DNA of 64,000 bases, taken from positions 1 through 64,000 of the IMG/VR virus record IMGVR_UViG_3300042317_000390, one strand, 5' to 3'. This stretch comes from a virus. Numbering within the stretch: position 1 is the first letter of the stretch; each line of letters opens with the position of its first letter. Under the pieces are notes generated by a model. That model made no database searches. It had not been told where the DNA came from and saw only the letters and a program-made list of their open reading frames with translations. Both the position numbers and the translations under genes were made by a program. This document shows, one piece after another, positions 672 to 39,058 of the stretch.

Positions 672-1067
672 TTATTCCTTTTTCTTATTTTGTTGATATA
701 CTACTGATCCATAAATCTCCTCATAAGATAGACCATCTGGAATAGCATTTACTGCTGAACTTGGTCTACCAGACATCCAAGATGACCATTGTGCATTAGC
801 AGCACTAGACGCTGTTAATGGAACGGTTGAACAATATGTTTTTGATGGGCAACGTGAATTGCCGCAGACATAACCATACGCCTTACCAACTTCAAAGAAC
901 ATACCGCAAACAATACAAGTAGTTCCTACGTTTTGTTGTCTTAACCAATCTTGATGTGGTTGTTGGTAAGGATTGGTGGGAAGCCTTTCAGACTTCCCTT
1001 TGTTATATCCAGCTTCCCAACCGTTTTGATAACCGGCATCGTAACCGTTTTTCCAGTCGTCACTCAT
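672..1067 (-). CDS. hypothetical protein with GY..GY..GW repeats and a putative Zn ribbon
   Basis: ATGA overlap with nrdJ stop; CIVC and CGNSRC motifs. Confidence 0.6.
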   Translation of the reverse strand: MSDDWKNGYDAGYQNGWEAGYNKGKSERLPTNPYQQPHQDWLRQQNVGTTCIVCGMFFEVGKAYGYVCGNSRCPSKTYCSTVPLTASSAANAQWSSWMSGRPSSAVNAIPDGLSYEEIYGSVVYQQNKKKE

Positions 1068-2965
1068 ATCTCACAGTTCCCTGCTGTACAAGCCAATGTC
1101 TGAACGCCCTCGACGTTATCATCCACTTCAACTAGAGCATCCCAATCAACTATTGTAGGAATATTTATAATAGTATTATCATATTCTTCCTTAGTGATTG
1201 TTTCATAAGGAGCTTGTCTATATGTACCACCATCATATGGAAGGAATGATACGCCAGACATTTCATCAAAATGATCATAGACCCAAGCACCGACTCGTGG
1301 CCACTCTGCCTCCGTTACGTTAATCGTAACAGAAGGTTTATGCTCACACCAATGACGCTGATACTTTAACCAAAGTTCTAGGTGATCGATAGCAGATACA
1401 CTCTCTCTAGTAATTGAAGACTCTGGTAGCTTCATAGGAAATGAAAATACAGTAGTAGAATGAGGCTTAGTAACGTCAGGCTCGTTAGGCACACCCGCAT
1501 CAATAAGATGTTTTGTAAGAGGATCTTTATTGTCACTTCTAACACGGCGAATGTAATAATGGTCGTGACCGGGATGAATACCAGAAGGACTAAGAACCAA
1601 TTGGCTGACGGTTCCAGAGGGCTTAACGCAGGTAATAGCAACTGACTGGTTAATTCCAAGCTTTTCGCTCCATTCCTTATTCGTGTCAATAGCAACCTGA
1701 CGAAGACGTTCTAGACGCTCAGGAAGTTCTGGATCTTTATAATCGTTCATTAGTGGGCAATCATAAATGCCTGTAAACGAAACACCTAGAAGCCTTTCTT
1801 CCTCTGTATTCTTCTGCCAAATCTTACGAAGATATGGGAAATGAGTCATAGTTGATTGAAACGTTCCCAATATTGTTGCGACTCTAATCTTTCTAGCAAG
1901 AGATTTCTCACTATCATCGCTTCGTATAACGACCTCTGTGAGGTTGCAAAACTGGTATGGTCGAAGGATAATCTCCGAACAGGGATTAGTTCCGAATTCA
2001 AACGATGGATCTCTTCTTCCACTTCTTTTAGCAACTTTTTGGCTTGCTTCTCTGGAAAAGATTCCACGTTCGCCCGACTTAGACTCATAGATGGAGAGCC
2101 ATTCTTGCATGAACTGTCCAACTTCTGGTTTTTCCGTATAGACTGCTGAATTATTTGATAAAGCTCTTTGTACATTTGCTTCCCACCATTGTCCTGCTTT
2201 AGCATGACGCATACGATCATCACTAAGATTAGATAGAGAAATCATAGCAGAACGGCGAACGCCACCAACTACAACAACTTCACCAATTTTACACATAATA
2301 TCATGGCACTCTAGTGAAGTTAGCTTACGACCATGAGCGTTCTTAAAGATACGAATAACAAACTTGAATAGATCGTTGAGTGGATCTGGTCCAGAAGAAC
2401 GACCACCAAATACCTTTAGTGGAGCACCAGCAGGGCGAAGCTGCGATAGATCCCACTTTGGAACTTCACCAGCGTAAAGCAAAGAGATAAGCATACGCAA
2501 TCCCTTTGACCAACCTTCCTTAGAATCACGAACTGTAATAAGAGTATCACAATCATAAAGATTCTCAGGTATCTCTGGTAGCTTATTAACATACTGACGC
2601 TCTACAGAGAAACCAACACCTGTGCCATTCATAAGAATACACATAGCCTCGTCGAATGCTTTAGGATCGTCAATCGGCAAATAAGAACAATTATAACCAG
2701 CAACGTTATCACGATCTAGCGCCTTACCAGCTGTCATAAGAGCACGCATAGAAGGCATTACTTCTAGATTATAAATTGCGTCAAATACTTCTTGCTTTAG
2801 CTTTTGATCAACCGTCCATCCCTGGCCTGTTGAAACTTTTGTGAACATATAATCCACATAACGCTGGACTGTTTCATTCCAGTGTTCACGACGATTCTTT
2901 TCTGGAAGGAATCTTGCGTAACGGGATTTATGAATATACTGCTGGTAAACTGTAAAGTCTGTCAT
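1064..2965 (-). CDS. nrdJ: class II (adenosylcobalamin-dependent) ribonucleotide reductase, monomeric type
   Basis: PSMRA, YNCSY, VVGGVRRSA, catalytic GTNPCSEI, TCVKPSGTVSQL, C-terminal redox pair ACTAGNCEI; no nrdB nearby. Confidence 0.95.
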   Translation of the reverse strand: MTDFTVYQQYIHKSRYARFLPEKNRREHWNETVQRYVDYMFTKVSTGQGWTVDQKLKQEVFDAIYNLEVMPSMRALMTAGKALDRDNVAGYNCSYLPIDDPKAFDEAMCILMNGTGVGFSVERQYVNKLPEIPENLYDCDTLITVRDSKEGWSKGLRMLISLLYAGEVPKWDLSQLRPAGAPLKVFGGRSSGPDPLNDLFKFVIRIFKNAHGRKLTSLECHDIMCKIGEVVVVGGVRRSAMISLSNLSDDRMRHAKAGQWWEANVQRALSNNSAVYTEKPEVGQFMQEWLSIYESKSGERGIFSREASQKVAKRSGRRDPSFEFGTNPCSEIILRPYQFCNLTEVVIRSDDSEKSLARKIRVATILGTFQSTMTHFPYLRKIWQKNTEEERLLGVSFTGIYDCPLMNDYKDPELPERLERLRQVAIDTNKEWSEKLGINQSVAITCVKPSGTVSQLVLSPSGIHPGHDHYYIRRVRSDNKDPLTKHLIDAGVPNEPDVTKPHSTTVFSFPMKLPESSITRESVSAIDHLELWLKYQRHWCEHKPSVTINVTEAEWPRVGAWVYDHFDEMSGVSFLPYDGGTYRQAPYETITKEEYDNTIINIPTIVDWDALVEVDDNVEGVQTLACTAGNCEI

Positions 2966-9513: not shown

Positions 9514-9706
9514 TTTTCTTAATAACTTCTTTAGCTGATTCTTCTACGACCCAACGTGTTCCACCACCAGGTCCGCCGAAAACGATGGTAGATAAAGAAC
9601 CATACTTCTCGCTGGATTCTTCAAAAACGCTTGTGATCCAGTCAATATTAATATAGATTGGATCGCCCCTGTACCTGCCAGTATTAGAAAGTTTTACAAA
9701 CTTCAT
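9485..9706 (-). CDS. FlbD-like small protein
   Basis: FVKL...IYIN.D.I..V...T.V...V.ES..EV..KI pattern. Confidence 0.5.
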   Translation of the reverse strand: MKFVKLSNTGRYRGDPIYINIDWITSVFEESSEKYGSLSTIVFGGPGGGTRWVVEESAKEVIKKIAEATNESP

Positions 9707-10728
9707 ACCTTACTCCATTTCTGTAACGCCAGTTTCGCTGACAAATCTCTATACGTATTCGTTTTAATAATATGTTCGATAAATTCAGGAGACAATCCAG
9801 CAAGGACCATATCGTTGATGTCTTTATGATCCATTGACTCTGGCCAAATACAGACATTATACCCGTTCATAATGGCTTTGTCAAGTTTCTTTTTAGTCTC
9901 TATAGACCGAGGCTCGTTGTCATATACGATCGTAAGTCCTGATTTGTCAAAATCTCTAACTGCGCTAACCAGATCACCTCCAGCAGTAGCAATAGCATTA
10001 GTAAGAAACATACTATCAATCGGGCCTTCAACGACATATATAGGCTTGTTAGTAACCATAGTGTCCAAGCCATACAACTTAGGTATGCTATCATCAAGCA
10101 CGATTGTAATGTATTTAACGGCACTCCCTGCTCTAAGGCTGCGACCTTGGTAGGCATGAACACTCTTATTACTATCCAGAAAAGGTATAAGAAGCCTCGT
10201 CTCATCTCTAGCCAGAGACTCAGTTGAAAACTTGTTGGGCACCAAATTATTAGTAAAATGCATAAAATTAGGACATGCGAATAACTTGGCATGATAAGGG
10301 GTAGGTATTCTTCTTTCATCAACAAATACTTTAATTGGATGGTTTGGTGCAAGTTGTGATACCTTCTTTAAGCCTTTAAGTGGTCCTTCTTTCATAAAGA
10401 CCGGCTTCTTCATTTTGTTTACGAACTTTTCAAATTCATCTTGCTGTGGAGATTTACGATCAGCAAGTCTCTCTAACTGATATTCGTTATATAGATTTTG
10501 ATCTAACATCTTAATAAAGTTAGGTATGCCCATAGTCGCACTGCAGTTATGGCAGTGAAACAACATCTTACCTTCTTTTTCGTAGATGTAACCTCTGGCT
10601 TTATTCTTATTTGATTCGGAATCACCACAGATAGGGCATCTGAAATTATATAGTTGTGGACCTTTACGCTTGAATTTATCTAAGCGGGATGATACCATAC
10701 CAATATACTTGTGTTCAAGCCAATCCAT
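9703..10728 (-). CDS. gp61: DNA primase (T4 gp61-like)
   Basis: NFRCPICGDS...KARG, CHNC Zn finger, TOPRIM VVEGPIDS, YDNEPR, KDINDM. Confidence 0.95.
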   Translation of the reverse strand: MDWLEHKYIGMVSSRLDKFKRKGPQLYNFRCPICGDSESNKNKARGYIYEKEGKMLFHCHNCSATMGIPNFIKMLDQNLYNEYQLERLADRKSPQQDEFEKFVNKMKKPVFMKEGPLKGLKKVSQLAPNHPIKVFVDERRIPTPYHAKLFACPNFMHFTNNLVPNKFSTESLARDETRLLIPFLDSNKSVHAYQGRSLRAGSAVKYITIVLDDSIPKLYGLDTMVTNKPIYVVEGPIDSMFLTNAIATAGGDLVSAVRDFDKSGLTIVYDNEPRSIETKKKLDKAIMNGYNVCIWPESMDHKDINDMVLAGLSPEFIEHIIKTNTYRDLSAKLALQKWSKV

Positions 10729-20284: not shown

Positions 20285-21592
20285 TTATCTTGATACTTCT
20301 TCCCAGTCCATAGAAGCGTATATATCAGCAGCACCAGCATCAGATGCAGCAACTAATGTTAACTCATAAGGAGAGGAAGTAAGTCCATTTCTTTCCAGCT
20401 GAAACTTAAATAGTGCTTCTTTTAGAATATCAACAGGACTTGAACCCTGATTAGAACCACTGGTCCATCCGGACGCCAAAATTCTTCCACCAGCAAAACT
20501 TGTTCCTGTAAGATTATATTCAACAGCAGAATCATCTCCTGCAGTAGTCCATGTTCCGCCTGTAGTTGCACCAGAAGCTACTACTCTCCAATTATAATTA
20601 GCATTGTTGGTTATTCCTAGTATCGATAAAGCAGTAAGAATAACAATAGCATCAAGTCTATCAGGAGAAGCCTTCAATCTAATTGAGACAACTGGATAAT
20701 ATGTATTAACTGTTGTTAAATCTCTAGGAGCGCCAATAGCTGTTCCAATGGCTTGTTGTAATCCTCTTAGTTCATAACCGCCTTCTGAAATAACAGAGGT
20801 GCAAATTTGTTTTAAGATGCTTGAACCAGAAGTAGTTCCAGTATTTTTAATTTCATAACGGCATGGTAATGAAGCTGTTGTAATATAAGTTGTTGTTACC
20901 AAATTTGAATGATAGAATGTATGACAATGAATAAATTTACCATCAATAACAAACCCAAGTCTAACGCAACCAACACCAAGCCATTCAATATCCATCCATA
21001 GAATTTGAGCTTTTGTGATATCTAATGTTAGAAGAGAAGCACCAGCGCCGTCTAATTTGTCAATATTCCAATTTGCCTGAGAAACTCTTGTTTCTTGCAA
21101 ACCACCAGAGACAAAAGTTCTTTCAACAAAAGAAAGAGTTGTGCCATCTAATTCTAAATAAAAACCATTTTTGGCGCCGTAGTATCCAACACGTTGTCTT
21201 AAATTAGTTTTTGCTGTATTAAAAGCAAAAGTGTTCATAATCTGAAGGGATTTACCAGGCTGATAAGAAAATACTTTAGTTGTTTCACGAACAACTTCTG
21301 CGTTTGTTGCCGTAGATACGTTTAGATTAACAAGACCTTCATTAGTAGAAAAGGCATAAGTTCCACCAGCGGTATTAGAAGTGGACCATAGATTGTTATC
21401 ACGGTAACGATGAGAGGAATCAAAAAGAGTTAGTGGACTTGAAACTCTGGCTCTACCAAAAGCATCAACGGCTGTTCCTGTAGGATTTGCTGGTCCAACT
21501 TGATTACCAAACTGATCGGCAAGCATAACAACTTCGAAAATAGTTTTACCATCTGGTAAGTATTGATGCGTATCTTTACGAAACTGTGCCAT
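20285..21592 (-). CDS. putative virion structural protein
   Basis: DAFGR.RVS.P.TLFDS, YQPGKS, WLGVG.VR.GF motifs of a widespread phage structural family. Confidence 0.7.
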   Translation of the reverse strand: MAQFRKDTHQYLPDGKTIFEVVMLADQFGNQVGPANPTGTAVDAFGRARVSSPLTLFDSSHRYRDNNLWSTSNTAGGTYAFSTNEGLVNLNVSTATNAEVVRETTKVFSYQPGKSLQIMNTFAFNTAKTNLRQRVGYYGAKNGFYLELDGTTLSFVERTFVSGGLQETRVSQANWNIDKLDGAGASLLTLDITKAQILWMDIEWLGVGCVRLGFVIDGKFIHCHTFYHSNLVTTTYITTASLPCRYEIKNTGTTSGSSILKQICTSVISEGGYELRGLQQAIGTAIGAPRDLTTVNTYYPVVSIRLKASPDRLDAIVILTALSILGITNNANYNWRVVASGATTGGTWTTAGDDSAVEYNLTGTSFAGGRILASGWTSGSNQGSSPVDILKEALFKFQLERNGLTSSPYELTLVAASDAGAADIYASMDWEEVSR

Positions 21593-23221: not shown

Positions 23222-24616
23222 TTACTTGAATCCTTCAAACTTAGGTTTAGGTTTGCGCCGCTCTGTTTCTTCTTCCATAAACTTACCTTTGTCCATTACT
23301 GGACGATCATCTGTAATACCATCTTGAGCTGATTGCTCAACGTCGTATAATCGCATCTTGCTGCGATCCACCCCAAGGACGAACCTGCGATTAGACCCAG
23401 GATCAGAGTAACGGTTCTTGAGCTGTTTAACCATGATCTGACCGAGACTTTCAAGTTCTTCGGAACTGATGAGTGCAAACATAAAATCAGCTGTGGCTGG
23501 GAGTCCAAAGGATTCCGATGTATCCTCCAGTCCCACGTCGCTGTTCGAATATCCGCTTCGAGTTGTTTGAGTTGCAGTGACGATAGGGACGTTGTACTCA
23601 ACTGCCAACCCTCGAAGCTCTTCTGCGATTGCTTTGACAAGGGTATAAGAATTGACGTTGGCTCCATTTTTAATCCTCGAAGATAGGCAGATGTTCAAAT
23701 AATCAATATAGATAATATCAGGTTCAAAGTTCTTCTTAATTCTTAGTTCATTAAGAAGATGACGAAAGTTAGCAGAACCAGCGCAAGCTGTTGGATATTC
23801 TTTAATAATCAGCTTACCAGTAATCTTTTCCTTTAACTTATTAATCTTAGTATCATAAGTTTGTTTAGGAATAGATTCTAACTGATCAACAGTAATATCT
23901 AACAAGTTAGAGTCAATACGTTCTGCTATCCTTTCCTCCGCCATTTCTAGCGTGATATACAGTACGTTAAGCCCTCTTGAGATATTTGCTGCTGCGCAGT
24001 GGCACATGAATAGGGATTTACCAACGCCTGTCCCTGCCAAGGCAACGTTGAGCGTTTTGTTCGGTAATCCACCATTTGTAATTGTGTTGAAGTAGTCAAG
24101 ATCGAAAGGAACTCTTTTCTCTTTACGATGGTAGAACTCGTATCTCTCATCACTGTCAACCAGAAAATCATGACCAATGTGGGTATCAAAAGAGACACCA
24201 AGAGCGTCAGTGAGGATTGTCGGTATATTTCCTTTGGAGATTGATCCATCTTTTTCATCCATTATTTTGATTGACTTCATGATCGCAAGATAAAGTGCTT
24301 TATCCTGACAGAACTTCTCTGTCTGATCCAAGAGCCAATCTAGTTGAGTGTTAGAATCAGCTTCAAGACCAGCAATAACTTCCTTGCTATCCTTAAAAGT
24401 CTGATCGTTTAGTCCTTCTTTATTAGACAGGTCTATTGCTAACGCTTCTATAGAAGGGAAAGAGTTATACTTTTTTACATAGTCATCAATAATATCAAAA
24501 ACTACACGTTCTGAATAATCCTGAAAGTAATCGTTCTTGATAAAAGGTATAACCTTTCTGTTGTATTTATCGTTGAATAATAAATTAGAAAGTATAACTC
24601 TCTCAATGTTCATCAA
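23222..24616 (-). CDS. gp41: replicative DNA helicase (T4 gp41-like)
   Basis: Walker A AGTGVGKS, YITLEMAEE, IDYLNIC, TSESFGLPATAD, KQLKNRY. Confidence 0.95.
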   Translation of the reverse strand: MMNIERVILSNLLFNDKYNRKVIPFIKNDYFQDYSERVVFDIIDDYVKKYNSFPSIEALAIDLSNKEGLNDQTFKDSKEVIAGLEADSNTQLDWLLDQTEKFCQDKALYLAIMKSIKIMDEKDGSISKGNIPTILTDALGVSFDTHIGHDFLVDSDERYEFYHRKEKRVPFDLDYFNTITNGGLPNKTLNVALAGTGVGKSLFMCHCAAANISRGLNVLYITLEMAEERIAERIDSNLLDITVDQLESIPKQTYDTKINKLKEKITGKLIIKEYPTACAGSANFRHLLNELRIKKNFEPDIIYIDYLNICLSSRIKNGANVNSYTLVKAIAEELRGLAVEYNVPIVTATQTTRSGYSNSDVGLEDTSESFGLPATADFMFALISSEELESLGQIMVKQLKNRYSDPGSNRRFVLGVDRSKMRLYDVEQSAQDGITDDRPVMDKGKFMEEETERRKPKPKFEGFK

Positions 24617-25680
24617 ACCTCCGTATTGTCTTCTTCGTCGTAAACCAAAGAGCCTTCAGTGTCAAGTGAGTATCTACGTTTAATATAGGAAGCAAAATCT
24701 GTTTCCTTGAAAATACTCATCCAAAATTCTTTAGAGTCCACGATATCACCCGCTCTGAAGTTCTTTCCATCCACTTCCCCAGTTGTTCTATCCACTTTGG
24801 CGTACCACCCAACTTTCGGCTTAGCCACATAACCACCTTCGAGGGCAATATCGAGCAGACCGCTCCAACGATTAATACCACCCTCATAACTAACGGTAAT
24901 CGGTATCTTAGATTTTTCACGAACGTAACGGGATTTCTCAACATTAATGACAAAATGGTAGCCTTGAATCTCAGTGCCATCTTTTTCCTGCTGCCGTCCT
25001 AGAATCCAAATGTTATCCGCACCGTAGTAAGCGCCAGTCCCGCCACCAACAATATCTTTAGGGAACATACCAATTTCTTTGTAAGTATGATTGACTGCCA
25101 CAAGGGGAATATCCTTTAACGTCAGATGTGGGGTAATCATTCTGAATAGCGATTTAAGCTGCTTAGCACGAGACATATCAGCAACTGACTTCTCGTTTAG
25201 AGCATCTTCAACCTCTTTCTTAGACGCTAAATTGCCGATAGAGTCAACTATAATCAGGACGTTTTCATCACGAGTTATCTCTTTTAGTTGCTTCATCAGA
25301 TCAAACTTAAGTTCTTCAACGTCTGTGATAGGCGTATGAACAACTGAATCAAGAGGGATCTTGAACTTCGTAAAATAACTCTGTGGTGTACCAAACTCCG
25401 AATCATAGAATAGAATTACACCATCTGGATACTTCTTAAGATAGGCAGATGCTAATAGTAAAGCAAATCCTGTCTTAAAGTGCTTTGATGGACCAGCCAA
25501 CATAGTTAGACCGGGAGTAATACCACCATCGATTGTTCCTGATAACGCTACATTAATCATAGGAACGGTAGTAGGAATCATATCCTTCTTCGTGTAAATC
25601 TTCGAATCAGTCAACGTTGACGTATAATCAATCGTTGAGTTTTTAATCAACTTATCCTTTAACGACATATACTTCTCCAC
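24613..25680 (-). CDS. uvsX: RecA-like recombinase
   Basis: AGPSKHFKT, FYDSEFG, DSIGNLASKKE, ADMSRAK, VGGGTG. Confidence 0.95.
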   Translation of the reverse strand: MEKYMSLKDKLIKNSTIDYTSTLTDSKIYTKKDMIPTTVPMINVALSGTIDGGITPGLTMLAGPSKHFKTGFALLLASAYLKKYPDGVILFYDSEFGTPQSYFTKFKIPLDSVVHTPITDVEELKFDLMKQLKEITRDENVLIIVDSIGNLASKKEVEDALNEKSVADMSRAKQLKSLFRMITPHLTLKDIPLVAVNHTYKEIGMFPKDIVGGGTGAYYGADNIWILGRQQEKDGTEIQGYHFVINVEKSRYVREKSKIPITVSYEGGINRWSGLLDIALEGGYVAKPKVGWYAKVDRTTGEVDGKNFRAGDIVDSKEFWMSIFKETDFASYIKRRYSLDTEGSLVYDEEDNTEV

Positions 25681-25956: not shown

Positions 25957-28437
25957 CTATGTGAAAAAACTTTCTAGCGTTGAAATATTCTCAGTTTGCC
26001 AACCTATAATTGAAGTAATAGCTTTCAGAGGGTCCATGAATGATTTCTCAAACTGTTGCTCTCTGTCGATATACTTTTCTAGGTTAAACTGTTTAGGAAG
26101 AACGTCATGGATTGCGATAACCGTTTCCTGAATAGGATTTGGTTCGATAAGATATGCGAACTTAATCTTATCACCATCCATGATAGGTTGGATTTCCTTA
26201 ACATCATGAAACTTTAGCATATTATTAAAGATTAAAGCGCCTTTAACATGAATAGGCGTTCCCTTCTTGTATATAGACGCTTTATCTGTATACTTTCCCA
26301 TATTCTTAACGCTACGAGGAAATGCAATATCCTCTAGCGGCAGATCCAAGAACTCTTGTTTGAATGTAGTTATAAACTTCTTGAGTTCATCCTCAGTCCC
26401 GTTCATAATAATCTTTAATGCTTTCTTGATGTTCTCACGACAAGCATGTGGAGTAGAAGAACGAACTGCTTCGATTCCCTGAATCTTTAACTTTGGCTCA
26501 CTATACTGTACACCTTCAACGTTCCATGCGTTGAGGATATACATCTTCTTAGCTTTCCAAATACCTTTATTAGCAATAGTTTCACGCTTCATCTTCATCT
26601 TCTGTTGATAAGCGTTCATATACTCTGCTAATTCAGCGTAACAATTATCGATGAATGGTTGAATTCTATCTTCACAGAACTTATCTAGCGACTCAACTAT
26701 GAGTAGTTGATCATCGCCGCCAATAACATCAACCACACCGGCCATACTAACATAAATCGAATCAGTATCTGAGGCGATAACATAATCAACACCCTTTGTC
26801 TTTAAAATCTTATTCATATAATCGTTAATCTTACGCTCAATCCATCTAATAGATAGCTGACCGGACATTGTAATAGATTCTGCTAGATCAAAATTAAACC
26901 AACGGAAATACTGATTACCTAGTGCGCCATAAGCTGAGTTAAGCTGAATCTTACGAGCCATCTGCATATTATGATAGCGTGAGATTAGCTTCTCGTCTTC
27001 TGAATTAGGATTATTTTCATAACGCTGTTTAGCTTCAAGCATTAACTTCTTATACTTTGTTCGGTCGTCATACATACGTTCCATCAAAGCTGGTAAAAAG
27101 CCTTGTTCGTCTTTGCGGTAAAAGCAACCGTTAGCAGCGTAAGTATAAGTGTTTTGACTTCTAAATGGAATCTTATCAAGAAGCTCTTCAATAGAAAGAG
27201 GCTCCGACGCTTTACCACAATAAGTCTCAGGACTGATATTATACTGCATAATAAGATGAGGATATAGACTGTTCAAGTCAAATGAGACTACCCAATCATT
27301 AAGTCCTAGCTTTGGTTCTTTAACGTAACCACCAACTAGGTTATCAAATCCATGATTACGCTTGGTTTGTGGTATAACGATATTTTTCTCAAGGAGATAG
27401 TTATGAATAATAATATCCCAAGGACGAATAGTTGTCATTGTATCGTTAAAGTTCACCTTGGCGTCATAGGCTAGAGCCATAATCTGCTCAATAAACTTCA
27501 ACTTATCATCAAGACGTTCTACTAGAACAACGTCATGGATGTTATATTCTAGGTAAAGCTGAAAGTTATCTCTGTAAAGATTATTAAGACTGCCATACTC
27601 AGAATAGTCAATCTTATTCTCACCAAGTTCAATACTTGCGATATAATCTAGTTTATATGATTCCTGATTACCGAATGTGAACTTACGATAGATCTGAAAG
27701 TAATCTAGAACAGAGATACCGTGAATATCGTAGCTCTTGCTCTCTTTTGATTTGAACTCTACGATCTTCTCATCTACCATCTTCCAAGGAGAAAGACGTT
27801 TAATTTCTTTTTCACCAAACAGATTTTTAATACGAGTAACAAGATAAGGAATATCGAAGAACTCAATATTCCATCCAGTGAGGATGTCCGGCATCCAGTC
27901 TTTACTCTCCCAAACCTGTAGAAACTTCTGTAGAAGATCTTCTTCATTCTTACACTTTAGATAATAGATATTTTCTGATTTAGGAGTAAAGTCCTTAACG
28001 CCAAAGCAAGCAATCTTGTTTCTTAGTTTAAGTGAGATAGCAGTGATGGGTTGATCGGCAAGTTCGATGTTAGGAAAGCCAACAACATCGTCGCCGCCGC
28101 ACTCAATGTCAAGAGTAACAATATTAATGAGGGACGGGTCATAATTGATTTCGCCTTTGAACTTATCAAAGATGTAAAGATATTGGAAAGTAGTTAGACC
28201 ATAGATCTCCATATTGGAGACATCTTTGTATCTTTCCATAAAGTCTCTAGCGTCTCTAATACCGTCAAAGTCCATGCGCTCGACGGGTTTGCCATCTAGA
28301 GTTTTATACTTACCATCTGGTTTAGGAAGAAATAGATATGGCTTATATTTGTCTACGTATTGAACTCTAGAACCTTTATCAAAACCACGAACGTAAACTT
28401 TATCACCACGAGAAAAAATATTTGTATAGAAATCCAA
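25957..28437 (-). CDS. gp43: family B DNA polymerase (T4 gp43-like); start moved to TTG 28437
   Basis: ExoI DIE, SFDLNSLYPH, KIQLNSAYG, ASDTDS, KKMY; GGAGG RBS 6 nt before TTG. Confidence 0.96.
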   Translation of the reverse strand: MDFYTNIFSRGDKVYVRGFDKGSRVQYVDKYKPYLFLPKPDGKYKTLDGKPVERMDFDGIRDARDFMERYKDVSNMEIYGLTTFQYLYIFDKFKGEINYDPSLINIVTLDIECGGDDVVGFPNIELADQPITAISLKLRNKIACFGVKDFTPKSENIYYLKCKNEEDLLQKFLQVWESKDWMPDILTGWNIEFFDIPYLVTRIKNLFGEKEIKRLSPWKMVDEKIVEFKSKESKSYDIHGISVLDYFQIYRKFTFGNQESYKLDYIASIELGENKIDYSEYGSLNNLYRDNFQLYLEYNIHDVVLVERLDDKLKFIEQIMALAYDAKVNFNDTMTTIRPWDIIIHNYLLEKNIVIPQTKRNHGFDNLVGGYVKEPKLGLNDWVVSFDLNSLYPHLIMQYNISPETYCGKASEPLSIEELLDKIPFRSQNTYTYAANGCFYRKDEQGFLPALMERMYDDRTKYKKLMLEAKQRYENNPNSEDEKLISRYHNMQMARKIQLNSAYGALGNQYFRWFNFDLAESITMSGQLSIRWIERKINDYMNKILKTKGVDYVIASDTDSIYVSMAGVVDVIGGDDQLLIVESLDKFCEDRIQPFIDNCYAELAEYMNAYQQKMKMKRETIANKGIWKAKKMYILNAWNVEGVQYSEPKLKIQGIEAVRSSTPHACRENIKKALKIIMNGTEDELKKFITTFKQEFLDLPLEDIAFPRSVKNMGKYTDKASIYKKGTPIHVKGALIFNNMLKFHDVKEIQPIMDGDKIKFAYLIEPNPIQETVIAIHDVLPKQFNLEKYIDREQQFEKSFMDPLKAITSIIGWQTENISTLESFFT

Positions 28438-28584
28438 AATTACCTCCAAAAACGGCGTCCGGTCTAAAAGACCCACAGACCCTATAATAAAAAGATGGCT
28501 CCATCTATATCTTAAAGCATGCACTCAGATATAGACACCTAGTTAATTCTAGCGCTCTCATGAATTTCAGAGGAGGGAGCCGAC

Positions 28585-29322
28585 CTATGAGTTAGATTTT
28601 TCTCCACCGATAATCTTTAGGGATTTATTCAATCTTTTAAGTTCCAAAAGATGACCAGAACCCACTATATATACCCCGGATTTACAATTAAGTAAATAGC
28701 CATTTCTTTCGTCTTCAGACTTTTTAGCTAATTTTCCTAATTTATTTGGATAGTCTTGCCAGTTCTTTGGCCATTCAAGCTTTTCGCCTGTTGTTAAAAA
28801 CTTCTTTACGTTTTCTTCTGTTGCTGGCATTCTAGACATTTTTAGGAAATCTATGTCTTCTTCGCTGCCTGCCTTTAGAAACTTAGTTAAATCATTTGCG
28901 TCATAATCTCTATCTTGGAAATACTTATTGCCTTTTTGATTCTTAATTAATGAATCAAATATAGATAGTTTTGGTGATACAAATTTACTAATCATATTAT
29001 TAGCTTTAACATTACTAAACATAGGAGCCATAAACTGTATTGGATAACCGTCTACGCTCTTAGCAAACTCATCGTCCCAAGAACCTTCATAACTTTTATT
29101 AGAACCAAAGAGTTTAACATTAGACTCTATGTCTCCACCATTACCTTCATACCAAATACCGTGTTTCTTACCTATGGATAAGACCTTTTCCTTTAGTTCG
29201 TCAGAAAGAACTATTGGAGAGCCATGACCGCTACCAACGTAAGCTTTAGTTGGACCATCAAAGATTACACCATATGGTGCTTGGCTTTTACTTTCTGATA
29301 TAAATTGTAAAAAAGATTTCAT
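28585..29322 (-). CDS. hypothetical protein with capsid-targeting-like N-terminus
   Basis: MKSFLQFISE start; terminal GSGHL motif. Confidence 0.6.
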   Translation of the reverse strand: MKSFLQFISESKSQAPYGVIFDGPTKAYVGSGHGSPIVLSDELKEKVLSIGKKHGIWYEGNGGDIESNVKLFGSNKSYEGSWDDEFAKSVDGYPIQFMAPMFSNVKANNMISKFVSPKLSIFDSLIKNQKGNKYFQDRDYDANDLTKFLKAGSEEDIDFLKMSRMPATEENVKKFLTTGEKLEWPKNWQDYPNKLGKLAKKSEDERNGYLLNCKSGVYIVGSGHLLELKRLNKSLKIIGGEKSNS

Positions 29323-29618
29323 TCGTCCTTTTTGTCCTTGATCAAGTCCATCTGTTTCATTTTTTCTTGACCTCTAGACCAAGAAGACACGCCCAAGATA
29401 GCGCCCATAGATAAGTGGAATACGCCAGCGTTTTGTAAAGTAAGTGGTTGCCATTCTCCAAAGTTACTACTCCCAGATTGCATCGCATACCAAACATAAA
29501 AGATTGGTCCGATAATAAAGTCAAATAAACATATAGCAACATAAGCCCAAGCGAGAGTGGCACGCCAATATCTGGTATACCAACTCTCTGCGTTATATGC
29601 TTCTTGTAGCTTATCCAT
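29319..29618 (-). CDS. putative holin (GTA-type holin family-like)
   Basis: WR...AW.Y..IC.FDF..GP, LGVS.W.R..EK; two TM segments; adjacent to endolysin. Confidence 0.7.
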   Translation of the reverse strand: MDKLQEAYNAESWYTRYWRATLAWAYVAICLFDFIIGPIFYVWYAMQSGSSNFGEWQPLTLQNAGVFHLSMGAILGVSSWSRGQEKMKQMDLIKDKKDE

Positions 29619-30106
29619 TAGCCTATTACAGCCGCTTGGAAGTGCATACCATCTGGGCGAGACTTCCAGTCACCACCCCAAACCCAACCTTCTTCTTTAA
29701 AGAACTTAACCATTGGGCTTTCATCAGTAAAACTTTCGGAATGATAACCTGGCTTCCATCCAAGCTGATTCTCTGGAGCGTTAATATCAATAGCTAAACC
29801 ATAAGCATGCATCGATAGGTTTCTTCCGCCACGCATAGGTCTTACCATATGTGCGCCAGAGAAAACATCTAGACCGTGATGTTTAATAGTAGCCTTATCT
29901 TTACCATAATATTCCCAAGTCTTGGTTAGAACTCTAAGTAAAGACTCAGCGCAAATCTTATTCATTGTACATCTTTTAATGACAATATCTCCCATATACA
30001 TTGTATAAGGAAGAGTTACTAGTGTTAGATTTTTGCTAAAAGAACGCTGTGTTGGATTTCCAAATTTAGCAAGACACTCAGATTGCTTTGGCCATTTATT
30101 ACTCAT
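29618..30106 (-). CDS. endolysin, peptidase M15 family
   Basis: R.MRGG..LSMHAYGLAIDIN and WGGDW...D.MHFQ zinc-peptidase motifs. Confidence 0.88.
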   Translation of the reverse strand: MSNKWPKQSECLAKFGNPTQRSFSKNLTLVTLPYTMYMGDIVIKRCTMNKICAESLLRVLTKTWEYYGKDKATIKHHGLDVFSGAHMVRPMRGGRNLSMHAYGLAIDINAPENQLGWKPGYHSESFTDESPMVKFFKEEGWVWGGDWKSRPDGMHFQAAVIG

Positions 30107-30890: not shown

Positions 30891-31340
30891 TTAAACGATG
30901 TTAACTTTTTTAGGTTTCTTTTCCTCTGGAATCATATTTTCCAGATAGATCTTCAAAATACCATTGAGCATTTCTGCGTTTTTCACTTCAACGCTATCGG
31001 CAAGAGTAAATTTGCGTGTGAATACACGATCCGCAATACCCTTATAGATATATTGTAGTGGATTGATTGTAGCATCAGCCATATCGTTAACTGTCATACC
31101 ACCTTTAACGACTAATACGTTATTGGCGAGTTCAATGTCAATATTTTGTTTGCCGAAACCTGCAACAGCCATTTCAATAGTATAATTGTTGTCGTCAACT
31201 TTCACGATATTATATGGAGGCCAATTTTGGGCTGCTGCTTTTGCGTAGGTATCTTGTACAGAATTCAAGGTATCTAGAACCTTATCAAAGCCTACAAGAT
31301 ATTTGTTGAAGTTGTTAAATGCAAATGGATCGTTTGTCAT
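30891..31340 (-). CDS. hsp20: small heat-shock protein
   Basis: PPYNI, IEMAVAGF, YKGIA.R.F.R.F.LA, A...NG.L.I.L...IPEEKKP. Confidence 0.95.
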   Translation of the reverse strand: MTNDPFAFNNFNKYLVGFDKVLDTLNSVQDTYAKAAAQNWPPYNIVKVDDNNYTIEMAVAGFGKQNIDIELANNVLVVKGGMTVNDMADATINPLQYIYKGIADRVFTRKFTLADSVEVKNAEMLNGILKIYLENMIPEEKKPKKVNIV

Positions 31341-31395
31341 AGTTATCTCCTTTTAAGCGAGAAAAATAATCAGCGTTCCAATCAGGCAACGCTTC
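31341..31395 (-). promoter_or_regulatory. ROSE-like RNA thermometer in hsp20 leader
   Basis: TCTC(G)CTT pairs with AAGGAGA SD leaving a bulged G; upstream hairpin AGCGTT/AACGCT. Confidence 0.6.
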
Positions 31396-31397
31396 AT

Positions 31398-31450
31398 ATT
31401 ATATAGTAATTGTGAGGGGGAAGTCAATACCTCCCCCTCAACTTTTTTTT
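31398..31450. terminator. hairpin between pmoC and hsp20 overlapping a sigma70-type promoter
   Basis: TGAGGGGGA/TCCCCCTCA stem with T-tract on the plus side; TTGACT-N18-TATAAT on minus strand. Confidence 0.6.
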
Positions 31451-32214
31451 TATTCTGTTAGAAGTGCTACGCCTTCACGCCCTAGCAAAGCATGAACACG
31501 TCCTAGAATTTGGAGAACAACGCCGAACACACCAAGTGCCATCCAGCCAAAGAACACGAAGCCCCAATGCAATGGTGCTACGAATAGTTCTTCCATGAAC
31601 CAGAAAGTATGACCCCATTCGTTGAGACCAACGTTTGGAATGATCATAAATGGTCCAATAGCTACAATCAAGAATGCAAGGCTGTATCCATGTGAGAAGT
31701 ATGGAATACGGGTTCTTGCATAGAAGAAAGCACCTACTGCAATTACGCTATAGATTGGATATGACATGTAGAATTCAATGATGTGACTTGGAGTAAAGTC
31801 AGTATCACGAATAACAGTCATATGCCATGTACCATCCTGTTCAGTAAAGAAGGATGCGCCCCAATAAATGGCAGCAGCATACACAACAAGCCACTGAACA
31901 AGAACTACTAGACGACGCATTTCCTCACGAGGAGCTACGGCGTCAATGTCACGATCTCTCGTCTTCCAAAGATAACCAGCAAGTGCTAGTCCTGAGACTA
32001 ACTCAAGCGGAATCTCCGTCCAGAGAATAGACATCCAATATGTCTGAAACTCGGGTGCAAATGAGTCAAGACCAGCCCTCCAGCCGAATACCTGCTCATA
32101 GATTCTGACGATTAGATAGAATGTGTTTAGAAGCGCAAGGCCAATCCACATTCCACGGAGATCAACGACATCTGACTTTGCTGCGACTGCAGCGGTTGTA
32201 GTTACTGTACTCAT
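31450..32214 (-). CDS. pmoC: particulate methane monooxygenase subunit C (auxiliary metabolic gene)
   Basis: GLDSFAPEFQTYW, ASFFTEQDGTWHMTVIRDTDFTPSHIIEFY, PNVGLNEWGHTFWFMEELFVAPLHWGFV; alphaproteobacterial-type wording; GGAG RBS. Confidence 0.98.
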   Translation of the reverse strand: MSTVTTTAAVAAKSDVVDLRGMWIGLALLNTFYLIVRIYEQVFGWRAGLDSFAPEFQTYWMSILWTEIPLELVSGLALAGYLWKTRDRDIDAVAPREEMRRLVVLVQWLVVYAAAIYWGASFFTEQDGTWHMTVIRDTDFTPSHIIEFYMSYPIYSVIAVGAFFYARTRIPYFSHGYSLAFLIVAIGPFMIIPNVGLNEWGHTFWFMEELFVAPLHWGFVFFGWMALGVFGVVLQILGRVHALLGREGVALLTE

Positions 32215-32289
32215 ATATTATTCTCCATAGAGAAAAAAATCAAGTGGTCAGTTTCGCCTTTGGTGACGGTGAACCGCCACTCTTGGTGT

Positions 32290-32320
32290 TATTTATACTA
32301 TACCTCTATTGAAAAGTCAA
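32290..32320 (-). promoter_or_regulatory. pmoC promoter: sigma70-type with the -10 coinciding with a T4 late box
   Basis: TTGACT-N17-TATAAATA. Confidence 0.75.
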
Positions 32321-33321
32321 CTGGCTTAGTTAAGTTTTTTTCCGAAAGTTTCTTTGGCTGTGCAAAGAATATCCATATTTCTTCTGTCAAGAATGAATAT
32401 TGGAGTCATATTCGCTGCTCTATATTCTTCTGCAACTTTAAGAACAGTTCTAAGACCGCTCTCTTCGTCTTCTGGAATAAAAGAAGCTGCTGCTATAACA
32501 ACGTTTTCTGGAACTTCGACTAAATCTTGTAGGTTTAATTTTTTCATTTATCTTTCTTATAAAAAGCTGAAAGGTAAGTCTGCATTGCATCAGAGAATAC
32601 CTTATATCCAAACATAGTAACCATCATAGTATTCTTATACATAGTATACACTGGATTCTTATCCAGAACATCTTCTTCTTTTTTAACCTTTGGTGGTTTG
32701 CTATCTAATAAAGTCTTATCTTCTATCATATCCTCAAAGAATTGTAATTTCATCTTTGATTGATATTCAACGTCATCAACCTTGGGATCATTCTTTAATA
32801 GTTTTTTAATCCTTTTGATCAATTTAAGTTGCCTTTTTGTAGCGTGATACTGACATAACAATATATGATCTAGATCGTCCATTTTACATTTCAAAGGTTC
32901 CAGGGACTAACCACCATGACACAGCAGCCCAATAAGGCTTATCCAATAATGGATCAATCTCAAAACAGGCAGTAACCATTTCAAAGGACTGCTGTTCGAT
33001 ATAATATTCTACTATCATTTGTCTTTGTCCGTCACATATAATTCATCAAGATTTTCGTATAAAACCTTTTCAAATTCTTCACCTAATCTTTCTTGTTTTT
33101 TAAGAAATTCATTCATTTCATATTCTATATGATCACCATTATGAAATCTAATTCCTAATAAGTGATCGTGCATGGCCATCATAGCATTAGCAAACCAACC
33201 AATCATATATTCTTCATCACGGAAAGCATCACGATCCATATCTTTTGTAGTTTCAATAAAAAACTTGGCCCATGCTTGTGCATCTGGATTTTGATGTATG
33301 CTCATATCATAATCGGTCATA

Positions 33322-33687
33322 TTAAATAATATCCATAGTAAAGATTGCACGAATATAGTGTTGAGGATCAAATGGAATACGGTTACGAGCAAATACAACG
33401 AAACCTAAATCATTGCCTTCCATAACGTCTTTCATTGACTTGCCTGTAGTATATACGTCATCAACGACTAATCGTAATGGGTGTCCGGGCGTAATATACT
33501 TCTCTAACGATTGAGCCAACTTAACGCCACCACGAGGAATACCGTAAACACTACCAAATCTAGTACGCTCATGTATAATCCTTGATAAACAATTCCAGTC
33601 TTCATCTGTTAATGCGTCACACTCAATTTTCCAATTTAACTCATGTCCAGCGTGGGAAATAAACTTTCCCCTATTGAATAGATTCAT
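33322..33687 (-). CDS. minimal type I phosphoribosyltransferase (PyrE-like)
   Basis: GIPRGG and PRPP-binding loop LVVDDVYTTGKS. Confidence 0.75.
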   Translation of the reverse strand: MNLFNRGKFISHAGHELNWKIECDALTDEDWNCLSRIIHERTRFGSVYGIPRGGVKLAQSLEKYITPGHPLRLVVDDVYTTGKSMKDVMEGNDLGFVVFARNRIPFDPQHYIRAIFTMDII

Positions 33688-34822
33688 GACTTTTTCCGTT
33701 TTTTATTAAACAAATACCATTGGAGTCTTATGAAACCAATGACTCTGTTTATATAGTCTGTCAGATAAACGTCACGCTTGTTATTGAGTAACCATAGTCT
33801 ATCATAGTCAGCTTGTAGGGCAGAGATTAGATAAGCAGCCTTGCGAGGAACAGACATACATTTAACATGATTGTTCTTCTCAATCCAATCTGCTAACTCA
33901 TGCAGTTGTTTGATTATTTCGTCGTGGTCATTCATCATGCACCCCAGTAAATTACTTCTTCTATTTTACGACCCCACAAAAATGCGCCATCATTATATGC
34001 TCGTATTCTGAGAAGAACTTTCAAGTCAGAAGAAAACATGGCGTAGTCAAGAATACCACACTCTTCCATAAGCAGATCAAATGTAGGATTGGCCCATTCT
34101 TCGTCAGTCATCTATTCTCTCACCAACTTCATTGACGTGGAAACCAGCACGGACTTCTAATTCATCCTGTGTTTGTTTATAGAACTTGAACACATGATTA
34201 CAATACCATCTGTCCCAGTCTCCACCGTCAAACTTTTGTTCTTTCAAATATTCATCAAACAGTTTGTTATACTCTGCTTGAGTTATTGATTTCATTTTAG
34301 GATTTCTCTAATCCTTGTATATTGCACATTTGCTGGTTTAAGTGTTCCAAAGTCAATAATCGCCTCAGGTGCAAATGTGCTTGGATCTTCTGTAAATCCA
34401 ACAACAAATCCTTCAACCAAAATCATATCACCAACTTCAAGTTTATCAGGATCAATTTGTAACTGTGCCATTATAATTCTGCCTTCATCATTTATCTTTA
34501 TGACACTTAATGCCCATTCTACCTTCTACCCAATTACCTAACATATTAATCTCAGCATGGGTAGTACCAACAGTGCAAAGTTTGGGTTCAACTTTGGCTT
34601 CTTGGTTTTGACAAACGCTACCCACACACATGAATACAGTTGCTAATACTAAAGTTTTCATCAGAAACCAAACTGTGCCTTGACGATCTTAACGGCGATA
34701 TCAAAAGCTTCGCCTAGAACGACTTCATCAACTTCCACTCCACGCTCACGGAAAACTTCTCCCATAGCGTCAACTGCTTGTGTCTTTGTCTCAGATGTAA
34801 TATCAAACATTATGTTCTCCTT

Positions 34823-34848: not shown

Positions 34849-35229
34849 ATGGAAATACTATTATCTCTCATAACTTCAGGATCATTACGTTATATAGTAA
34901 TCCTATTACTCGTAGCCATTGGCGGAACTTATTTCTATGTGTCCTACAAGAACTACGGTGAGTTGCAAAGAGAATTAGCTCAATACCAGTATAATATAAA
35001 ACAGCTTGAGCAATTAGTAAAGGACAGAGAAAATCAGATTCAGAACCTTAATCAGATTAATAAGGATAAGGATGAAGCTGTGGTTCTACTTGAGCAAGAA
35101 AGACGAGATCTTGAAGATAAACTAAAATCTATTGAGAGTGATATTGATATAGAGGTAGGTAAAGGTAACGATAGACCTTCTTCTAACATTCTTAAGGATA
35201 CATTTAGAAAATTAGGAGTTATGAAATGA
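34849..35229 (+). CDS. putative inner-membrane spanin
   Basis: single N-terminal TM followed by long coiled coil. Confidence 0.7.
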   Translation: MEILLSLITSGSLRYIVILLLVAIGGTYFYVSYKNYGELQRELAQYQYNIKQLEQLVKDRENQIQNLNQINKDKDEAVVLLEQERRDLEDKLKSIESDIDIEVGKGNDRPSSNILKDTFRKLGVMK

Positions 35230-37958: not shown

Positions 37959-39058
37959 GAAAGTATCATCCCGGCGATAAGGTAACAGTCAGAGCAATTG
38001 TGCGGTATAACTGTATGTCTGGTAGATTGTTAGGGGTTGAGATTATCGGTGAAGGTAATATTGATCATGTGACAGTAGTAATACCTGTCGATCAAATAGT
38101 ATCACACGAGAAGGTGCCGCCAGGACAGCCTTTGGAAAGGGATGCTGCAAGTGCGTCTCGAAGACGAAGCCGACGACACCGCTGCGCTGGCGCTTCTCGC
38201 ACCCGCCGCGCACAATCCAGGAGGAACGCCATGAGCAGCATGCGCAAGCTCGAACGCGATTTCGCTCATGCCGACGCCGCTGCCGTCAACGGCTTGCTCG
38301 CGCAGCTCGGCGACGAAGACGTTATGGCACGGTTCGGCCTTGAGGCGCGGCTCGCCGACCTGCAGGCCGAGATCGCTCGGCTCGACGCCGCCGGCGACGA
38401 GCCTGTCGCGTCGGCCGCCCTGTTCTTCGGCGGTCGTCCTGTACTCGGCCAGCGGGGGATCGAGAGCGAATTCGCCGGCACCGTTATCACCAAATTTCAA
38501 GATATCGTCGCGAAGGTTCTGGCGCGCTGGGTGACACCTCGACCCTCGCCGACCCCGGCGTGGTCGATGCGCTCATCAAGGATCACGCCTCCAGCTGACG
38601 TTTGTCGACGCGCCACCTGCGTCGGCCTTGGCCTTGACAGCCAATATGTTTACCATAATGTTAGTAGGTTTGTAAAAGTATATAAGATGCACACAGCTAA
38701 AATCAAACCGCTATTCAAACCCGGTGATCGTGTTATATGGGATGATACGGCATATAACAAGAAAAGAAAAGCAACTGTTATTGCTTGCTGTGATGATGAG
38801 TATTATACTATTGAAGTGGATAGTAAGTATTCAAAATATAATACATTCAACGTCCATGTAGACAATCTTGATCCCATGCCCAAAGAAGTTAAGATAGCAG
38901 ATAAAGAATATGCTGTCAAGTGTGCTAAATGGTTTAAATCTGCTTACGCAGCGATAACAAAAGCTGGTGGTGTTCCTGAATATGTTATCGACAGTATTCC
39001 GGCTGATGTGTTAGATAATCTTATACGGAACGATCTCCACTTGGAGTATAAGAAGTGA
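37955..39058 (+). CDS. chimeric ORF spanning phage DNA and a GC-rich bacterial insert
   Basis: frame open across abrupt AT-to-GC transitions at ~38116 and ~38640; internal starts at 38231 (AGGAGG) and 38687. Confidence 0.5.
   Translation: MRKYHPGDKVTVRAIVRYNCMSGRLLGVEIIGEGNIDHVTVVIPVDQIVSHEKVPPGQPLERDAASASRRRSRRHRCAGASRTRRAQSRRNAMSSMRKLERDFAHADAAAVNGLLAQLGDEDVMARFGLEARLADLQAEIARLDAAGDEPVASAALFFGGRPVLGQRGIESEFAGTVITKFQDIVAKVLARWVTPRPSPTPAWSMRSSRITPPADVCRRATCVGLGLDSQYVYHNVSRFVKVYKMHTAKIKPLFKPGDRVIWDDTAYNKKRKATVIACCDDEYYTIEVDSKYSKYNTFNVHVDNLDPMPKEVKIADKEYAVKCAKWFKSAYAAITKAGGVPEYVIDSIPADVLDNLIRNDLHLEYKK
38116..38525 (+). other. captured bacterial fragment A: junction of a two-gene operon
   Basis: GC-rich; ..RQDSLWKGMLQVRL..GGTP-stop (TGA 38232-38234) overlapping ATG 38231 of MSSMRKLERD..ALFFGGRPVLG.RGIE.EF. 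Confidence 0.7.
38521..38598 (+). pseudogene. acs: captured 3' end of bacterial acetyl-CoA synthetase gene
   Basis: frame from 38521 reads GALGDTSTLADPGVVDALIKDHASS-stop, the conserved Acs C-terminal LGDTSTLADP motif. Confidence 0.85.

Follow-up and report, generated by a model that had tools for sequence, protein, structure and literature searches.

A stand-alone pmoC in a T4-like phage occupies an optional insertion site between orf73 and hsp20 and has long been held under purifying selection

pMMO is the main biological methane sink, and phages carrying its metal-binding subunit could therefore alter methane consumption by infected methanotrophs. The window analysed here, a stretch of 64,000 nucleotides which makes up the first 64 kb of an IMG/VR virus genome (IMGVR_UViG_3300042317_000390), contains a gene for this subunit, pmoC, among the genes of a T4-like phage. 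The locus raises the question of where the gene came from, whether it is kept as a working part of the enzyme and how its synthesis might be controlled in the infected cell. The idea of a phage effect on methane uptake has been present in the literature since 2020, and our window is a complete example of it rather than a new principle.

Phages of this class are known. Chen et al. (2020, Nat Microbiol 5:1504; PMC7674155) described 22 pmoC-phages of 159–527 kb from freshwater lakes, some of which were predicted to infect Methylocystis, including an alpha-type, T4-like group of ~160–175 kb (LR_1, LR_2, LM_1-3, LM_5, CB_4 and CB_5). In that study hsp20 adjoins pmoC in six phages, relatives with a partial pmoC or none are present, and the CuC ligands are conserved (PMC7674155). 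pmoC has also been counted among the most abundant viral auxiliary genes in a 20-year lake time series (bioRxiv 10.1101/2024.02.06.579183). Phage or virus amoC is a further auxiliary metabolic gene of a comparable kind. Our phage resembles the alpha-type group in being a T4-like myovirus of ~168 kb and ~39% GC with a stand-alone pmoC, in the >90% relationship of its PmoC to Methylocystis, in the CuC ligands, in the adjacency of hsp20 and in having relatives with partial or absent pmoC, and the verdict of the sequence-only reading, that the locus is not new in kind, is borne out by this earlier work. However, the combination of 168,653 bp, 38.5% GC, 7 tRNAs and a tmRNA-like gene (CheckV 100%) matches none of the genomes tabulated by Chen et al.; the nearest of them, LR_1, has 168,581 bp, 40% GC and 4 tRNAs. 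As the polB of the window is also at most 73% identical to that of other IMG/VR loci, we regard the phage as a new member of the pmoC-phage class. A tblastn search of the INPHARED phage collection with the window PmoC gave no match and is uninformative here, and 114 IMG/VR stretches were found to encode a PmoC relative.

The gene lies in a replication region, as had been proposed from the letters of the sequence: genes for a family-B DNA polymerase, UvsX, a helicase, a primase and ribonucleotide reductase are all present in the window (Table 1), and hsp20 is located directly downstream of pmoC, followed by an M15 peptidase and a holin-like ORF. Genes for a major head protein, scaffold, tail tube, tail fibre and a gp32-like protein are located elsewhere in the source genome, so that replication, head and tail genes together identify a genuine large T4-like phage. 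orf73, on the other side of pmoC, is without any Pfam family match. An assembly or binning artefact, in which a bacterial pmoC has been joined to a phage contig, would be a trivial explanation of the locus. The composition of the gene speaks against it, as the window pmoC has 45% GC and a GC3 of 38%, close to the median of the phage ORFs (32%, IQR 27–37%), whereas GC3 is 0.70–0.90 in bacterial pmoC and 0.21–0.47 in all 80 viral copies; the AT-shifted, phage-like codon usage that had been noted earlier is thus evident. Moreover, pmoC is flanked by phage genes on both sides of one contig, and the arrangement orf73-pmoC-hsp20 recurs in dozens of independent IMG/VR contigs. Composition and repeated synteny together refute the artefact for practical purposes.

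Table 1. Positions of the features discussed in the text (window numbering, except for the remnants, which are numbered within their own loci)
Feature	Position	Strand	Basis or description
Ribonucleotide reductase	1064-2965		
Primase	9703-10728		
Virion protein	20285-21592		
gp41-like (DnaB-like) helicase	23222-24616		
UvsX	24613-25680		T4-type replication gene
Family-B DNA polymerase (polB)	25957..28524	(-)	T4-type; PHROG 262, 1066 bits; Pfam DNA_pol_B; marker for backbone comparison
hsp20	30891..31340	(-)	Small heat-shock protein; Pfam HSP20 58.8 bits; PHROG 432; backbone gene downstream of insertion site
hsp20 promoter (sigma70-type)	31398..31427	(-)	TTGACT, 18-nt spacer, TATAAT; 11/12 consensus; promoter scan
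G+C-rich hairpin	31413..31440	(-)	9-bp stem, 10-nt loop; nine bases past pmoC stop; 3' cassette edge
pmoC CDS	31450..32214	(-)	ATG-to-stop ORF, 254 aa + stop; Pfam AmoC
Conserved 75-nt pmoC leader	32215..32289	(-)	17-leader alignment; nhmmer
Composite pmoC promoter	32290..32320	(-)	-35-like TTGACT (32320-32315), 17-nt spacer, TATAAATA (32297-32290)
orf73 (73 codons)	32326..32547	(-)	ORF; next to pmoC or hsp20 in related loci; backbone gene upstream of insertion site
pmoC internal-deletion remnants	L229:807-1100; L261:421-665; L262:2454-2700		Small ORF left

The pmoC ORF contains no stop or frameshift, and its product matches PF04896 (AmoC) with 358.5 bits against a cut-off of 26.7, covering positions 6–244 of the 245 in the profile. 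In a phmmer search of the PDB, the protein matches PmoC of Methylocystis sp. M (3rfr_C) with an E-value of 1.5e-158, and the Methylocystis pMMO chains 3rfr_C, 4phz_K and 7s4m_G lie between 1e-153 and 1e-158; PmoC of M. capsulatus Bath (1e-102) and AmoC chains (1e-63 to 1e-65) are weaker matches. About 20 residues differ from 3rfr_C in the printed alignment, which by eye is clearly >90% identity. The metal ligands were mapped through a gap-free alignment to M. capsulatus Bath PmoC (1yew_C, 7ev9_C; offset +29, 289-residue numbering). All of them are kept: the CuC ligands Asp156/His160/His173 correspond to D127/H131/H144 of the window PmoC, and the CuD ligands Asn227/His231/His245 to N198/H202/H216. 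The full-length protein with D..WH, SH, N...H and LH residues seen in the sequence-only reading is exact to the letter (DGTWH, SH, NEWGH and LH), and the correspondence with CuC and CuD claimed there holds for six of six positions. Compared with PmoC of the Methylocystis pMMO structures 3RFR, 4PHZ and 7S4M, the phage protein belongs to an equal length class with >90% identity in the printed alignments, its CuC and CuD positions are identical and its core (residues 115–237) is nearly unchanged. In contrast, the termini have diverged in the N-terminal 15 and the C-terminal ~17 residues, and the gene is located outside any pmoCAB operon and has a phage-type codon composition.

Neither pmoA nor pmoB accompanies the gene. 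A Pfam search of the whole 168,653-bp genome found neither of them, but the controls of this search were silent too, and the absence was therefore assessed by tblastn with PmoA and PmoB of one Methylocystis locus, both Pfam-confirmed, a search that recovers the two genes downstream of pmoC at most bacterial loci. The best E-value in the 168,653-bp genome was 0.42, and none was found in the 80 viral pmoC loci, so that the absence stated earlier for the window extends to the complete genome. Since operon-type pmoC is found directly upstream of pmoA and pmoB, the phage gene is a stand-alone copy of that family.

The relationships of the phage protein were analysed in a quick IQ-TREE phylogeny (LG+C20) of 141 PmoC/AmoC rows, comprising the window, 53 distinct phage copies, 72 bacterial copies and 15 named references; tblastn searches with PmoA and PmoB served to divide the bacterial copies into operonic and orphan ones. 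The window PmoC falls inside the operon-type clade of Methylocystis and Methylosinus (SH-aLRT 99) and is sister to operonic PmoCs from Methylocystis MAGs (L082, L083 and L084), the last two of which come from ME-series lake metagenomes. It is distant from Nitrosococcus/Nitrosoglobus AmoC and from the Methylocella/Methylocapsa branch, and gamma-type phage and bacterial PmoCs form a separate clade (SH-aLRT 97). Two divergent paralogue branches of Methylocystis/Methylosinus (58–72% identity) are also apart from it, and a divergent clade of bacterial orphans (L107, L117 and others), 77–87% identical to the window PmoC, forms a branch of its own (SH-aLRT 99). The sequence-only reading had assigned the gene to an alphaproteobacterial methanotroph and had named grouping with AmoC/PxmC or gammaproteobacterial PmoC as the result that would count against this. 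The tree gives no clustering with AmoC, with the divergent Methylocystis paralogues or with gamma-type PmoC, and the position inside the operon-type clade therefore agrees with that assignment. All alpha-type phage PmoCs fall in one clade with moderate support (SH-aLRT 84), which could be inflated by an AT-driven amino-acid bias pulling the phage proteins together. Bacterial stand-alone ('orphan') pmoC genes, which have been proposed as functional analogues of phage pmoC (Chen et al. 2020, PMC7674155), are similar to the phage gene in lacking pmoA and pmoB; the phage gene, however, groups with the operonic copies and their identical duplicates.

Resting mainly on this PmoC similarity, the host is most likely a freshwater Methylocystis. 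The window PmoC has 95% identity to proteins of Methylocystis MAGs, including one from an ME-series lake metagenome, and is thus within the >90% range of the pmoC-phage class. The phage might infect a different methanotroph from the family of Methylocystis (Methylosinus or an unnamed Beijerinckiaceae lineage), or the PmoC tree might reflect the donor and not the present host. One of the sister MAGs is labelled Beijerinckiaceae only, and the exchange of pmoC between phages with polB just 65% identical (see below) uncouples, in principle, the ancestry of pmoC from the host range of the backbone; yet such phage-phage recombination itself requires co-infection of one cell. Moreover, Methylocystis MAGs supply the closest bacterial PmoCs (95%), whereas operon copies of Methylosinus are 80–89% identical, and the phage locus L039 and the Methylocystis MAG L083 bear one metagenome number, 3300042861. 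We consider a different host or donor quite unlikely and retain Methylocystis as the predicted host. Window positions 38116–38640 match three of five Methylocystis-type genomes over only 47–67 nt (84–94%), and no match to this segment was found in PLSDB.

The residence of the gene in phages is reflected in its divergence. Relative to the closest bacterial genes, identity is 95% in protein (residues 16–254) and 75% in DNA, third positions are 38–41% identical and dN is 0.05, while dS by NG86 is not computable because synonymous sites are saturated. Against 17 other phage copies, dN is 0.013–0.09 and dS 0.23–1.96, giving a dN/dS of ~0.03–0.07. Neither the six ligands nor R136 and E199 vary among the distinct phage PmoCs, of which 33 are alpha-type and 20 gamma-type. 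The alpha-type proteins agree throughout at 195 of the 254 positions, among them almost every residue from 115 to 237, and departures from the host consensus are concentrated at residues 3–15 and 238–254. The saturated synonymous divergence, taken with the 95% protein identity, the phage-like GC3 and the low dN/dS, supports a gene which has been long held under strong purifying selection. Of the two attributes given to it earlier, 'long-resident' is thus upheld, whereas 'functional' receives indirect support from the dN/dS of 0.03–0.07 and from the ligands invariant in 53 phage PmoCs.

We consider it likely that the gene is an AMG of the known pmoC-phage class, carried by a 168.6-kb T4-like myovirus with a likely freshwater Methylocystis host, that its PmoC derives from a canonical pmoCAB copy, and that it supplements the host pMMO during infection. 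In the infected cell, the host RNA polymerase with sigma70 would transcribe the pmoC cassette, and the late machinery of the phage would probably do so a second time. The phage PmoC would then enter the intracytoplasmic membranes of the host and join host PmoA and PmoB, replacing or supplementing the host subunit which bears the CuC and CuD sites, and pMMO would keep oxidising methane and thereby provide energy and reductant during the shut-off of host genes. This logic would be analogous to that of cyanophage psbA. As with psbA and phage amoC, one membrane core subunit of a host energy enzyme is carried on T4-like phages under purifying selection, although the enzyme is different. psbA, which encodes the photosystem II D1 protein, recombines among phages and hosts.

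The phage PmoC might instead have been selected for a non-catalytic role, such as poisoning or re-tuning pMMO, stabilising or remodelling membranes for assembly, binding copper or blocking superinfection. It would be in line with such a role that subunit C alone is ever carried (as seen by tblastn and in Chen et al. 2020), that the termini are unlike those of the host protein, and that pmoC is located beside hsp20 and lysis genes (M15 peptidase, holin-like and spanin-like) and not beside metabolic genes. However, the constraint on the protein peaks in the nearly invariant metal-site core, and the six ligands have been retained by 53 phage copies that go back to two separate origins, where a decoy or scaffold would not obviously need them. 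The dN/dS is also like that of an enzyme subunit. A non-catalytic role therefore appears unlikely, and supplementation of the host pMMO is the reading that we prefer.

Comparison of related loci reveals a fixed insertion site, bounded by orf73 and hsp20, that pmoC occupies in some phages and not in others. The backbone order in the relatives of the window is orf84, orf116, orf73, (pmoC), hsp20, M15 and polB. A scan of viral contigs with hsp20 yielded mostly distant phages. The site was surveyed in 80 loci retrieved with polB, and among those which span it 28 are empty, with orf73 adjoining hsp20, 12 have a full pmoC and 3 have remnants. In the remnants (L229 and L261/L262) the promoter, the leader and the first 37–39 codons are fused to the last 15–21 codons. 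Because the junctions in L229 are unlike those in L261/L262, the deletions are independent, and pmoC has been lost more than once in the same way; the gene is thus dispensable in some lineages. These remnants and the many empty sites would suit an unused passenger, either a neutral hitch-hiker or a gene heading for loss, as would the few RNA reads of three small (159–168 kb) pmoC-phages of Lake Rotsee (Chen et al. 2020, PMC7674155). Such a passenger is difficult to reconcile with the uninterrupted ORF, with a dN of ~0.05 versus the host at saturated synonymous sites, and with a promoter and leader that are more strongly conserved than synonymous sites. We regard it as very improbable for the window and continue with pmoC as a selected gene.

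The insert has also moved between phages. Window and loci L006/L259 share ~95% nucleotide identity only from 32320 to ~31450, which includes the promoter, the leader and the CDS, and 60–75% on both sides. The dS of pmoC between them is 0.24 whereas that of hsp20, orf73 and M15 is >2, and the polB proteins are 65% identical, which indicates that the cassette moved between divergent phage lineages well after their split. Conversely L215, the nearest backbone by polB (71%), has a PmoC which is just 89% identical to that of the window. A recent exchange of the promoter-leader-pmoC block between divergent phages is well supported by these sequence comparisons. Promoter, conserved leader, CDS and a G+C-rich hairpin at the 3' edge together form a self-contained cassette at the site; the loop of this hairpin contains the hsp20 promoter's -35 hexamer. 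Comparable hairpins are found after the remnants of pmoC in L261 and L229; L213 and L241, in which the site is empty, lack them. A separate observation concerns four loci without pmoC (L222-L224 and L230), in which the orf84 homologue is 94–96% identical to window 33684–33938 while the neighbouring genes are 39–70% identical, a further sign of fine-scale mosaicism in the region. By keyword search of Chen et al. 2020, the words 'promoter', 'purifying' and 'selection' are absent, and so are the optional-insert site, the exchange of a pmoC block and the composite promoter with its leader; the sole mention of recombination found there concerns a 2-kb region of LM_1, LM_7 and LM_8 and not pmoC exchange (PMC7674155).

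The signals upstream of pmoC provide some indication of when it might be expressed. The octamer TATAAATA in the composite promoter can be read both as a sigma70-type -10 element (TATAAA) and as the T4 late-promoter consensus. Its 27 sites in the genome are no excess over the expectation from composition. Thirteen of the 27 are located in the 7% of the DNA which is non-coding and 15 within 60 nt of a same-strand start, and the octamer is present ahead of the major head, scaffold, tail tube, tail fibre and gp32-like genes. A TTGAC at the matching 17-nt spacing is found at the pmoC site alone among the 27; at one other site it is 3 nt closer. Counting distinct phage loci, TATAAATA lies ≤200 nt upstream of pmoC in 20 of the 31 that are alpha-type and in 13 of the 18 that are gamma-type; the composite form is found in 13 of the 31 and 2 of the 18, respectively. 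None of 70 bacterial loci has the octamer in this interval. We infer from this arrangement that pmoC is transcribed early by the unmodified host polymerase and later by the late machinery, the use of a late promoter being read from the motif. A scan of ten ORFs of 160–210 aa with PHROGs found no gp55-like late sigma factor among them. Early and late transcription would fit the co-expression reported for three larger pmoC-phages, in which pmoC is in the top-20 transcripts alongside structural genes (Chen et al. 2020, PMC7674155).

Between promoter and start codon lies the conserved leader. In its RNA, GAGUGGCGG (32282–32274) has two alternative partners, CCGUCAC (32269–32263) and CUGACCACUU (32251–32242), the second of which is followed by a U-run, and a further hairpin (32234–32221) spans GGAGA, the ribosome-binding site. 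Seventeen aligned phage leaders have in common the invariant blocks AAGAGTGG, CCACTTGAT and GGAGAAT. The leader has a minimum free energy of -20.2 kcal/mol (z = -2.4). Covariation is weak: the proximal hairpin has 2 pairs with two-sided changes, a score reached by 21 of 500 shuffles, and the long-range stem has no two-sided change. No Rfam family was found for the leader. Two mutually exclusive folds, one of them terminator-like, might act as a regulatory RNA, which we put forward as a hypothesis from the predicted pairings. When an nhmmer profile was built from the 17 leaders, it located the element immediately ahead of pmoC at 33 viral loci (E 1e-19 to 7e-8); bacterial loci yielded no match at E up to 10. 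The idea that it is a remnant of the bacterial pmoCAB 5' leader, with which it has in common by eye the short strings GGCGG, ACCGGTCAC and GCACTT, was consequently rejected as unsupported. In a second alpha-type phage subclade (L021, L035-L038, L043, L050 and L051) pmoC has an unrelated leader which is conserved within the subclade and forms hairpins of its own (e.g. GACCGGG...CCCGGTC), without TATAAATA and without linkage to hsp20.

These elements could be viewed together. It is possible, although we advance this only tentatively, that pmoC is a self-contained cassette, consisting of a composite early (sigma70)/late (TATAAATA) promoter, a two-fold leader, the CDS and a closing hairpin, which is swapped among divergent T4-like phages at one orf73|hsp20 hot-spot and repeatedly lost by internal deletion, and whose leader might be a new cis-regulatory RNA timing or gating PmoC synthesis. 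The value of the locus lies in the quantified selection (dN/dS ~0.05 with saturated synonymous divergence from the host), in an insertion site seen in empty, filled and decayed states, and in a promoter-leader cassette mobile between phage backbones. Together these supply concrete constructs with which to ask if and at what stage phage PmoC is produced, and by what route it is incorporated into host pMMO.

Some smaller features of the region and genome are also worth recording. The 5' leader of hsp20 (window 31335–31395, minus strand) gives a sub-threshold match to the whole Rfam model ROSE_3, an RNA thermometer (25.7 bits against a cut-off of 43, E 0.013); in the hsp20 leaders of six related loci, with a larger search space, no ROSE_3 match was found at E ≤0.1. 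In this leader CUCGCUU..AGGAG comes after a hairpin, an arrangement that could hide the ribosome-binding site, and ahead of hsp20 CTCGCTTAATAGGAG recurs in related phages whether or not they carry pmoC (L213, L222, L229 and L261). A lysis-like module is located near pmoC, at 29319–30106 (minus strand) and 34849–35229 (plus strand). It comprises the M15 peptidase (Pfam, 72.6 bits), a 99-aa holin-like membrane ORF overlapping it (PHROG 3427, weak) and a candidate Rz-like spanin with TATAAATA ahead of it. Outside the window, at genome positions 67840–68221, ARAGORN calls a permuted tmRNA-like gene with the tag ANDNDASFGVYALVA, and a copy of TATAAATA is present at genome position 67853, ~13 nt inside the start of this call.
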